DNA of 59,883 nucleotides, from positions 1 to 59,883 of the forward strand of contig JBEKFF010000001.1 of NCBI GenBank assembly GCA_050013455.1, given 5' to 3'. Below, piece after piece: positions 6,079 to 8,192 of the stretch (positions within the stretch are counted from its first letter, which is position 1; every line of letters starts with the position of its first letter). The notes beneath the pieces were generated by a model. That model had not been told where the DNA came from and searched no databases. It saw only the letters and a list, made by a program, of their open reading frames with translations. Made by a program: the position numbers and the translations under genes. The DNA comes from Acidobacteriaceae bacterium. Its GTDB lineage: Bacteria; Acidobacteriota; Terriglobia; Terriglobales; Acidobacteriaceae.

Positions 6079-8192
6079 TGTCAACTTGCACACATTGGGT
6101 GGACGATGGAACCATTGCATGCACTGATTGGGCCCAGCAGACGACTGTGTCCTGTAACCAATGGGCAGATGAAGGTTACAACGCGTGCCAGTCCTGGGCG
6201 GACGAAGGCTCGAACCAGTGCCAGTCCTGGGCGGACGAGGGCTCCAACCAGTGTCAATCCTGGGCCGACGAAGGCTCGAACCAGTGCTGCAACTGGGCGC
6301 CCTGCTCGTGGTTTTGCGATGCGTACTACTGGGTCGCGAACTGGGTATGCCAAGGCTGGTACTGGGCCGCGAACTGGGTGTGCCAGGCTTGGTATTGGGT
6401 TGCCAATATCGTCTGCGTTGTCTTTTTGTGGATCGTCAACGCCGTCTGCGTGCTGTGGTCCTGGATCGCCGACTGGGTTTGCGTTGCATGGGACAACGCG
6501 CGCTGTGCCATCTTCTCTTTATTCGGAGGAAACACCACACCGTCCGGCCCAATCAGGCACGTATTTGTCCTGATGCTTGAAAACCGCGCCTTCGATCACA
6601 TGCTGGGGCTCGCCGGAATTCAAGGTACCGATGCTGTAGCGGGTGGGCCCACGCTCGTCCACGACCTTACGCACGGAGGCCCGTTTCAGAATCCGAATCC
6701 GCGTGCAGCGGACGCACAGACGGCGGTCAATTCACCTGCGGACTTCTTTCTAAGCGGTACCGACCCCGACCCGGGACACGAATTCAATGACGCTCTACTG
6801 CAGCTTTGTGGCTACGTCCGGCAAGAGGATGGCAGTGTCACTGTCCCGTCCTATCCCCCGGGCGGTCCGTATCCGCAGCCGATCAACAACCAGGGATTTA
6901 TTGCCAGTTACGATGGTCTCGCCAACGTAAGTGGCGACGTGCCAAATCAAAATGATCCGCAAAGAATCATGAAATGTTTCGATCCAAGTCAACTTCCCGT
7001 GATCACAACCCTCGCCAGCTCGTTCGCACTTTGCGACCAATGGTTCTCTTCCATCCCCGGTCCAACCTGGCCAAATCGATTCTTTATCCATGCCGCGTCA
7101 TCCGGTGGTCTCGATGACAGTCCCTCCGGTTTTCAGAGTGTCACCTCCACCCTGCTGAATGGTTATCGCTTCGAAAATGGAACCATCTACGATCGGTTGG
7201 AAGACAGTTGCTTCGATTGGAAAGTATTTATGGGAGACGAATTCCCGCAAGTCTTTGCCATCAGCAGGATGACCGACAGAAGGCTTGAAGGGCACTTTGA
7301 AGGCTCCGATGAGTTTGCCGATTCCATAAACGACCCCGACTTTTCGACTCCCTATACCTTCATTGAGCCGAACTACGGGAACGCCCTTCCAACGACTCCA
7401 GAAGATTTCACCTGCGGCAACTCCCAGCATCCTCTTGATGATGTCACTCGCGGCGAACGCCTTATCAAGAAGGTGTATGAGACGATTCGCAATTCACCAC
7501 ATTGGAACGACAGCGTTCTTCTTCTTGCCTACGATGAGCAGGGCGGCTTCTATGACCACGTCAACCCACCGCCCACTGTCAGTCCCGGCGATACCATCTC
7601 CGACGAAGACAATAATCATCACAGCTTTGATTTCAAACAGCTCGGCATTCGTGTCCCAGCCATCGTGATTTCGCCATTGATCCCGGCGAACCTGGTGGAC
7701 CACACGGTGTATGACCATACCTCTTTGCTGGCCTCGGTTGAAGGCATGTATGGCCTCAAATCACTAACCAATCGTGACGCGCAGGCTAACAACCTCAGCC
7801 ATCTGTTCTCGTTGACTACTCCTCGGACGGATGCGCCCACTTCACTGCCGGACGTTGCCGTCTCAGGTTTCCGATGCGATGATGACCCAGCTTCGAGGGC
7901 ACGCAGGACAGTCAGTGCGTCAAGCGATCTCGTAACAGCCGCTCTCACGGATGATCCGATCATTGCGGACGAGCCGATCACGACGCTCCAGCGAGCCTTC
8001 CTTCACATCGCATTTCTGCGAAATTATCACCGTACGTCTTTCCTCGGGAAGCCGGCCGTAGTTCGCCGCTTCCTGAATATCAAAACCCGCGCCGAGGCGC
8101 AGCAATATATGGAAGAGGTGAGATACCGTGTCCCCCCAATCCATCTCCGCAGCAAAGCATCTATACCGAAGCCGACCACGCAGCGGTCGTGA
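6075..8192 (+). CDS. Phosphoesterase / phospholipase C (AcpA/PlcH/plant NPC family) with N-terminal Cys/Trp repeat domain
   Basis: Motifs: HVFVLMLENRAFDHMLG, DPGHEF, WFSSIPGPTWPNR, HPLDDVTRGERLIKKVYE, YDEQGGFYDHV, LGIRVPAIVISP, YDHTS. RBS GGAGG. No Sec or Tat signal. Confidence 0.92.
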   Translation: MMSTCTHWVDDGTIACTDWAQQTTVSCNQWADEGYNACQSWADEGSNQCQSWADEGSNQCQSWADEGSNQCCNWAPCSWFCDAYYWVANWVCQGWYWAANWVCQAWYWVANIVCVVFLWIVNAVCVLWSWIADWVCVAWDNARCAIFSLFGGNTTPSGPIRHVFVLMLENRAFDHMLGLAGIQGTDAVAGGPTLVHDLTHGGPFQNPNPRAADAQTAVNSPADFFLSGTDPDPGHEFNDALLQLCGYVRQEDGSVTVPSYPPGGPYPQPINNQGFIASYDGLANVSGDVPNQNDPQRIMKCFDPSQLPVITTLASSFALCDQWFSSIPGPTWPNRFFIHAASSGGLDDSPSGFQSVTSTLLNGYRFENGTIYDRLEDSCFDWKVFMGDEFPQVFAISRMTDRRLEGHFEGSDEFADSINDPDFSTPYTFIEPNYGNALPTTPEDFTCGNSQHPLDDVTRGERLIKKVYETIRNSPHWNDSVLLLAYDEQGGFYDHVNPPPTVSPGDTISDEDNNHHSFDFKQLGIRVPAIVISPLIPANLVDHTVYDHTSLLASVEGMYGLKSLTNRDAQANNLSHLFSLTTPRTDAPTSLPDVAVSGFRCDDDPASRARRTVSASSDLVTAALTDDPIIADEPITTLQRAFLHIAFLRNYHRTSFLGKPAVVRRFLNIKTRAEAQQYMEEVRYRVPPIHLRSKASIPKPTTQRS
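6186..6284 (+). repeat. Three tandem 33-bp repeats (CQSWADEGSNQ x3) within a longer 11-aa periodic array (6087-6506)
   Basis: TGCCAGTCCTGGGCGGACGAAGGCTCGAACCAG and two copies differing only at synonymous sites. Confidence 0.95.

Follow-up and report, generated by a model that had tools for sequence, protein, structure and literature searches.

An enzyme of the phospholipase C kind that begins with a ladder of evenly spaced cysteines and shows no signal peptide raises two questions: what fold the ladder adopts, and what it does for the enzyme. We studied such a gene in a window of 59,883 nucleotides (the whole stretch of DNA that was analysed). A sequence-only reading of the window missed the coupled gene directly upstream of the phosphoesterase gene (5644-6078), which encodes a membrane protein with a Cys-Gly-Cys (CGC) motif and is called the partner below. 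The pair has the following features.

5644..6078, + strand: partner gene, ending in an overlap with the start of the following ORF; TTG at 5632, further upstream, is an alternative start
5833..5841, + strand: Cys-Gly-Cys motif, partner residues 64-66; invariant (68 of 68 aligned members)
5980..5994, + strand: GKxxG motif at the end of the second transmembrane helix; Lys114 in 99% of members
6075..8192, + strand: hairpin-phosphoesterase ORF, 705 aa; no signal peptide seen
6087..6287, + strand: ascending arm, C5-C71; six 11-residue repeats, acidic; predicted helix 4-67
6285..6317, + strand: tip, C71-C81; inner Cys 72 and 77; low model confidence (residues 67-76)
6315..6482, + strand: descending arm, C81-C136; five repeats, Trp/Val-rich; predicted helix 77-149
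6504..6506, + strand: C144, an additional Cys that does not fit the lattice; present in all 96 rows of the phosphoesterase-type alignment
6552..7760, + strand: PF04185 phosphoesterase domain, residues 160-562; closest solved relative plant NPC4 (8hav/8haw)
7926..8129, + strand: C-terminal helical subdomain, approximately residues 618-685; no family match

Fold and family of the cysteine ladder

The cysteines of the ladder region lie at residues 5, 16, 27, 38, 49, 60, 71, 72, 77, 81, 92, 103, 114, 125, 136, and 144, which are the 16 positions claimed in the sequence-only reading. Its description of the arms also holds, with acidic repeats (CxxWADEGxN) in the ascending arm and hydrophobic repeats (CxxWYWxANxV) in the descending arm. 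It had further pointed out that six cysteine pairs sum to 152. The arithmetic is right, but it is not decisive, because any two 11-periodic ladders give such sums; in this protein, the sum 141 also yields six pairs. The arms are in fact unequal, with six ascending intervals and five descending ones, and 86 of the 96 aligned rows have an extra descending Cys at the gap of the window protein. The descending arm is reproduced letter for letter, and gap-free, in contigs of two further studies (X2 and X4); an assembly error therefore does not explain the number of repeats. Judged by the outermost repeat types, the family register sets C5 opposite C136, and one repeat, or the tip, would have to slip in this protein to accommodate the 6/5 arms. 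Because of this register and because C144 sits off the lattice, the pair 5-144 that had been proposed is unlikely. The N-terminal part of 81 out of 87 proteins has an odd total of Cys.

AlphaFold2 (96 sequences) models the ladder as a helix at residues 4-67, a poorly defined loop, and a helix at residues 77-149, with block pLDDT values of 70-87 on the arms. Hydrophobic periodicity peaks at 100 degrees in both arms (mean spectrum), not at 160-180, and the spacings of 11 and 7 residues correspond to three and two helical turns. The tag is thus very probably an antiparallel alpha-helical hairpin of hendecad repeats. The sequence-only reading had suggested structure prediction as a check, which returned this two-helix hairpin; it had left the choice between hendecad helices and a beta-ribbon, and of these the helices stand. 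A beta-ribbon with a Trp zipper, to which the abundance of V, W, and Y in the descending arm might point, is at odds with the helical model, the 100-degree period, and the whole-turn spacings, and is almost certainly wrong.

The predicted rod of the window protein is about 10 nm long (1.5 A per residue), and it is likely stapled by a disulfide at every third turn. On a helical wheel, the interface side of the ascending arm would consist of C, G, A, and one W, with D/E/N/Q on its outer side, and the descending helix appears to bear a second, outward hydrophobic face (W, V/I, V) along its whole length. The descending repeats have W (94%), V/I (93%), and V (90%) at positions away from the Cys stripe among the 120 homologs listed. 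The tip comes in several lengths and layouts across the family. The idea that a membrane-inserting aromatic tip is the main feature of the domain is therefore doubtful: the tip varies, and the conserved hydrophobic face spans the descending arm. Kelch proteins give a further indication of the fold. In the N-type proteins, the tag lies between GTW and LLTDG, which are 14 residues apart in P0212, a protein with the same Kelch cargo and the tag at the C-terminus. P0212 has this stretch without the interruption, so the two ends of the inserted tag must come together.

We searched for homologs with residues 1-155, which identified 420 proteins of 387-1234 aa, of which 120 were listed. Equal numbers of repeats in the two arms occur in 111 of these 120 close homologs among the matches listed (54.8 +/- 5.2 in shuffles, with a maximum of 73): 59 are 6/6, 48 are 5/5, 3 are 7/7, and 1 is 4/4. 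A profile search of representatives extended the family, which is unnamed, to 281 clusters at 50% identity. We counted arms in 141 new representatives, of which 80 have a compact tip and 16 an extended one, leaving out the other 45. Equal arms are found in 55 of the 80 distant representatives with a compact tip (shuffle 15.7; fragments included), and arms within one repeat of each other in 67. Among the 16 with an extended tip, every one carries a 7-residue step on either side, and the arms are equal in 13. In the loci with a linked partner, arms are equal in 52 of 67 (shuffle 18.9). These shuffles overstate the significance because related sequences are not independent. Arm lengths range from 2/2 up to 11/11 repeats, and this matched range, together with the paired 7+7 step, would be hard to explain without physical pairing of the arms. 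Some mismatch is tolerated, since by the counting rule arms are unequal in 9 of 120, 25 of 80, and 15 of 67 proteins, the window protein being among these exceptions. Hence, the matched counts claimed in the sequence-only reading hold for the family, and not for the protein on which the claim was made. A profile search, which it had also proposed, showed that arm lengths co-vary and that other enzyme domains are swapped behind the tag.

The hairpin (residues 1-152) has no match in Pfam or NCBIfam, and 67 hairpins match 0 Pfam families at E 0.01, CHCH-type families included, in agreement with the earlier statement that no named family covers this domain. Searches with the hairpin gave one match among PDB sequences (E 5.7) and no usable match in the ESM Atlas. 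The window's own genome (68% complete) contains no second copy, 33 genomes sampled from its family gave no match, and among RNA data sets none was listed as a carrier. Short homologs (83-266 aa, 22 matches) are mostly fragments, so they show no standalone hairpin; homologs outside 387-1234 and 83-266 aa were reached only through the profile search of 50%-identity representatives. Truncated or split copies, with the hairpin apart from the enzyme, occur in L004 (10001-10492), L076 (10004-12026), and L062. Divergent hairpins with few Cys or Ala-rich arms adjoin the partner in L087 (1901-2833), L123, and L149, and because they escaped the profile, the superfamily is larger than counted. At the other extreme, the phosphoesterase P0145 carries a hairpin with 11/11 repeats that spans 253 residues and, if helical, would measure about 18 nm. 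Cultured carriers include Caulobacter sp. Root1455 and BE254, Rhodanobacter sp. L36, and Streptomyces hiroshimensis.

Cargo enzymes, partner gene, and surroundings

The enzyme of the window protein matches PF04185 (E 3.6e-64, 217.6 bits, profile positions 1-356). Its best match in the PDB, both by sequence (E 9e-45) and by fold, is plant NPC4 (8hav/8haw), with which its ENR, GPTWPNR, HP, and DEQGGFYDHV stretches align; we take these to be catalytic-type motifs. Foldseek with the model of the full-length protein reported matches only for the enzyme domain. The fusion to a phospholipase C that had been described is therefore best stated as one to a PF04185 phosphoesterase closest to plant non-specific phospholipase C. 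It is not a PC-PLC equivalog (PlcH type, TIGR03396), for which it scores 114 bits against a curated cut-off of 580.25.

Across the family, the cargo is diverse. A domain scan of 129 of the 141 new representatives identified phosphoesterases, Kelch propellers, peptidases (S8, M64, and M12-like), lipases (lipase 3 and a GDSL-like one), and glycosidases (GH1 and GH16), and further GDPD, FAD, and galactose-oxidase-like domains, besides several unnamed families. Of the cargo clusters among the 141 representatives, 17 have at least two members. The tag is N-terminal in 88 representatives, C-terminal in 44, and internal in 9. Signal-like N-termini occur in 8 of the 141 and in 0 of the 120 listed homologs by a crude hydropathy rule, and there is no Tat motif in either set. 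Two large HExxH cargo families have 22 clusters each (P0152 and P0181 clusters; L042, L139, L168), one with a C-terminal hairpin and the other with an N-terminal hairpin and, after it, additional hydrophobic helices. In 8 clusters (P0160 cluster; L096; L035 12586-15618), the hairpin precedes a cargo of about 850 aa that is unnamed and has no Pfam match.

The partner consists of a small N-terminal beta/alpha part, a helix, a kink with the CGC, two predicted transmembrane helices, and a basic C-terminal helix. In its AlphaFold2 model (pLDDT 93), the CGC sits in the kink ahead of the first hydrophobic helix. The charges (K+R) follow an N-in/C-in pattern in 60 of 65 partners (three rows are without the motif used), and by the positive-inside rule the CGC is predicted to face the cytoplasm, near the conserved Lys. 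In Pfam and NCBIfam, the partner has scattered weak matches only, which assign it to no named family. These include Holin-X (PF07332) in 4 of 68 partners (best E 4.2e-4), the window's partner not being among them. Profiles of MauE, DsbB, and VKOR match none of the 68. A query of the ESM Atlas returned 30 clusters, all unnamed; with the partner model, Foldseek found nothing at E 0.001, and VIA gave a best Z of 7.5 to generic helices. The partner family, like that of the hairpin, is unnamed.

We compared 80 genome loci and the window, 81 in all. The partner gene lies within 1.3 kb of the hairpin gene in 77: adjacent upstream in 72, adjacent downstream in 3, and on the other strand in 2. It is absent from the remaining four (L039, L042, L054, L075), metagenome-assembled genomes in which no partner was found anywhere, so some hairpins, mostly C-terminal, may do without it. 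Clustering of the neighbours with BLAST identified no third gene shared across the 81 loci. In many loci, the stop of the partner overlaps the start of the tagged gene, with one partner per cassette; in L035/G703, a single partner gene accompanies two tagged genes, one with the unnamed cargo of about 850 aa and one with a phosphoesterase.

The association was also searched in the reverse direction. A DNA pattern gave 120 loci, of which 28 passed the partner HMM and 92 failed and were dropped. A hairpin gene is directly beside the partner in at least 22 of the 28, several of these hairpins being too divergent for the hairpin profile. Of the other 6, two follow the same cargo family on cut contigs and four have fewer than 500 bases downstream. 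Among 401 genomes of the window's phylum, the hairpin is present in 2 and the partner in 3; one of them (G292) has two adjacent hairpin-partner pairs, and the third genome with a partner has a divergent hairpin behind it. One order (211 genomes) has 4 hairpin-positive genomes, with the partner adjoining the same gene in all four. The partner was not found in 294 genomes of one class, and in 211 genomes of another order it was found in the seed only. This last order also contains four weak hairpin matches (E 4e-6 to 8e-4), three of them with stops.

The 67 partners placed in a tree come from seven named phyla and unclassified deltaproteobacteria. The groups follow the cargo and mix phyla, which fits a cassette that moves horizontally. 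We are highly confident that the partner and hairpin genes are functionally coupled. Since the partner is conserved across unrelated cargo, it most likely acts on the shared tag rather than on the enzymes, and the juxtaposition of a Cys-ladder substrate with an invariant CXC points to thiol chemistry.

Tc-type or RHS genes flank 8 of the 81 loci, the window included, and all eight are of the phosphoesterase type. The other 73 have no Tc gene in the DNA examined, so this context is not general. In the window, an RHS/TcB-TcC-like gene lies in pieces directly upstream of the pair (956-5627, +). At 1815-4638 it shows similarity to a Tc B-C protein, with changes of frame near 2330-2450 and near 4393, and two unnamed ORFs (4612-5286 and 5283-5627) lie where a variable C-terminal domain would be expected. 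In L006, L007, L008, L041, L051, and L056, the partner and its phosphoesterase are embedded in, or directly adjoin, TcA-type and TcB/C-type genes. Such Tc-linked pairs occur in Alphaproteobacteria, Bacteroidota, and Actinomycetota, and L006, L051, and L056 have a short protein (about 1100 aa) in which only a TcB-binding domain was recognised. Downstream of the window's pair, two tandem aldo/keto reductase genes (8550-10748, +), the first with a Tat-like signal, are apparently unrelated to the module.

Possible roles of the pair

In the reading that we prefer, with a probability of about 0.45, the partner captures and oxidises the ladder, and the resulting rod then docks the enzyme side-on at the membrane. 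Through the overlap of their genes, both proteins would be made together. The CGC of the partner and the tag would form a mixed disulfide, from which the ladder would zip up rung by rung, much as with the CPC of Mia40. The finished rod would combine an acidic helix with one whose second, outward Trp/Val face lies along the bilayer, with the catalytic domain held at its substrate, and the enzyme would be kept at the envelope, or passed across it, without Sec or Tat. The disulfides, binding, and export all belong to the proposed part of this reading. Its main difficulty is that the CGC probably lies on the cytoplasmic side, where conditions are normally reducing, and that there is no evident oxidant or electron acceptor. 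A wider claim would be that the module is an independently invented bacterial relay of the Mia40 kind, in which a cis-encoded, cytoplasm-facing CGC protein staples an extendable ladder tag at any protein position and so directs lipases, proteases, and glycosidases, already folded, to the envelope or through it independently of Sec and Tat, as a new protein-targeting pathway spread horizontally over at least seven phyla. We put this forward tentatively and regard it as doubtful.

The partner might instead be a holin-like pore or export helper, with the tag as its recognition handle and the disulfides forming after exit, through Dsb or air. This would suit its two predicted transmembrane helices with basic ends, the weak Holin-X matches, the leaderless cargo, and the Tc-type or RHS neighbours at 8 of 81 loci, given that Tc toxins leave by holin cassettes (PMC10847048) or with the help of the lipase Pdl1 (PMC3355079), according to the available parts of these sources. 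Yet most loci have no such neighbour, clustering of the neighbours with BLAST revealed no cell-wall hydrolase or other third gene conserved across the 81, no hairpin relative was found on viral contigs, and the tag can lie within a folded domain. The CGC of the partner is moreover invariant, which to our knowledge is not a feature of holins, and we find this explanation unlikely. It is improbable that the partner tethers or restrains the tag at the membrane, one partner per tag, perhaps through the spare Cys, and keeps the hydrolase inactive until a redox change, lysis, or stress frees it. One Cys would suffice for a tether, whereas the partner has CGC plus Lys; Kelch-type tags lack the +8 Cys; and one partner gene serves two tagged genes in L035/G703. 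These points weigh against the frequent stop/start overlap with one partner per cassette, the odd Cys count in 81 of 87 proteins, and the small linked antagonist of Pdl1 described in the available part of one source (PMC3355079).

Two further explanations concern the hairpin itself. The Trp/Val face could let hairpins assemble into oligomers (a bundle, needle, or pore) for delivery of the enzyme into a target cell, with the partner as assembly chaperone, which is the closest to the delivery idea of the sequence-only reading. The range of 2 to 11 repeats per arm is a misfit for a fixed bilayer span, a tag inserted within a propeller looks more like a side arm than a translocation domain, and there is no conserved immunity-like third gene. 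Even with the second hydrophobic face of the descending helix, the additional hydrophobic helices that follow the tag in M12-like proteins, and the toxin-like cargo and Tc neighbours in its favour, we hold this to be quite improbable. Finally, the facing Cys pairs could stay reduced in the cytoplasm and bind metal or acyl chains, the metal or acyl group being delivered by the CGC of the partner. The missing signal peptide and the probable cytoplasmic side of the CGC are compatible with this, but isolated pairs three turns apart offer two ligands each only, a few tagged proteins carry signal-like N-termini, and rungs are gained and lost jointly, which fits cross-links; this makes the proposal very unlikely.

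Comparison with known systems

A literature search identified no description of the hairpin domain or of the gene pair (supplements were outside its scope and subscription journals thinly covered), and PADLOC profiles of anti-phage defence assigned 0 families to 11 proteins. The nearest parallel to the capture and oxidation of the ladder is in mitochondria. The twin CX9C substrates of Mia40 are not known to carry cleavable signals, a point in common with the leaderless cargo here. Like these twin CX9C/CX3C hairpins, the tag is predicted by AlphaFold2 to be a helix-loop-helix with mirror-placed Cys on facing helices. It differs in being bacterial, in its CX10C spacing, and in having 2-11 repeats per arm (16 Cys in the window protein) instead of two Cys pairs. 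It is also fused to many enzymes, and its partner is a protein with two transmembrane helices encoded in cis. Mia40 oxidises mitochondrial Cys proteins with a CPC motif and holds them in a hydrophobic pocket, as described in the part of the source available; both systems would have a dedicated partner with a CXC motif, CPC there and CGC here (PMC4951193).

MauE is a membrane CGC protein that forms disulfides and needs both Cys to replace DsbB, and the partner resembles it in being a small membrane protein with CGC and a conserved Lys, as far as the available part of that study goes (10.64898/2026.03.05.709764). Unlike MauE and DsbB, the partner has two transmembrane helices instead of four, and its CGC would be cytoplasmic instead of periplasmic; unlike MauE, it lacks F-G after the CXC and is tied to one substrate class. 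The window enzyme shares PF04185 with NPC4 and with the PlcH/AcpA family. In contrast to these, it has the ladder tag in place of a Tat or Sec signal, and six mostly conserved Cys in its catalytic part. A leaderless hydrolase paired with a small membrane protein, in some cases within Tc loci, recalls holin-dependent release (T10SS) and the lipase-assisted release of Tc toxins (Pdl1/Orf53); here, however, the clustering of neighbours gave no conserved cell-wall hydrolase or spanin, the CGC is invariant, and most loci have no Tc gene.

Disulfide formation in bacteria is thought to be periplasmic and tied to export by Sec or Tat. If our preferred reading is true, enzymes could also be matured and placed in a new way, by means of a Cys-ladder tag that is portable, adjustable in length, and served by a membrane CXC partner of its own; this would account for many leaderless hydrolases of soil and peat bacteria. 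Whatever the mechanism, the rod would serve as a natural ruler on the molecular scale, some 3 to 18 nm in length (an estimate from 1.5 A per residue). On the features tested, neither protein could be placed in the CHCH, MauE/DsbB, holin, or defence families, and we regard the module as categorically new in its architecture, with a mechanism that is proposed.
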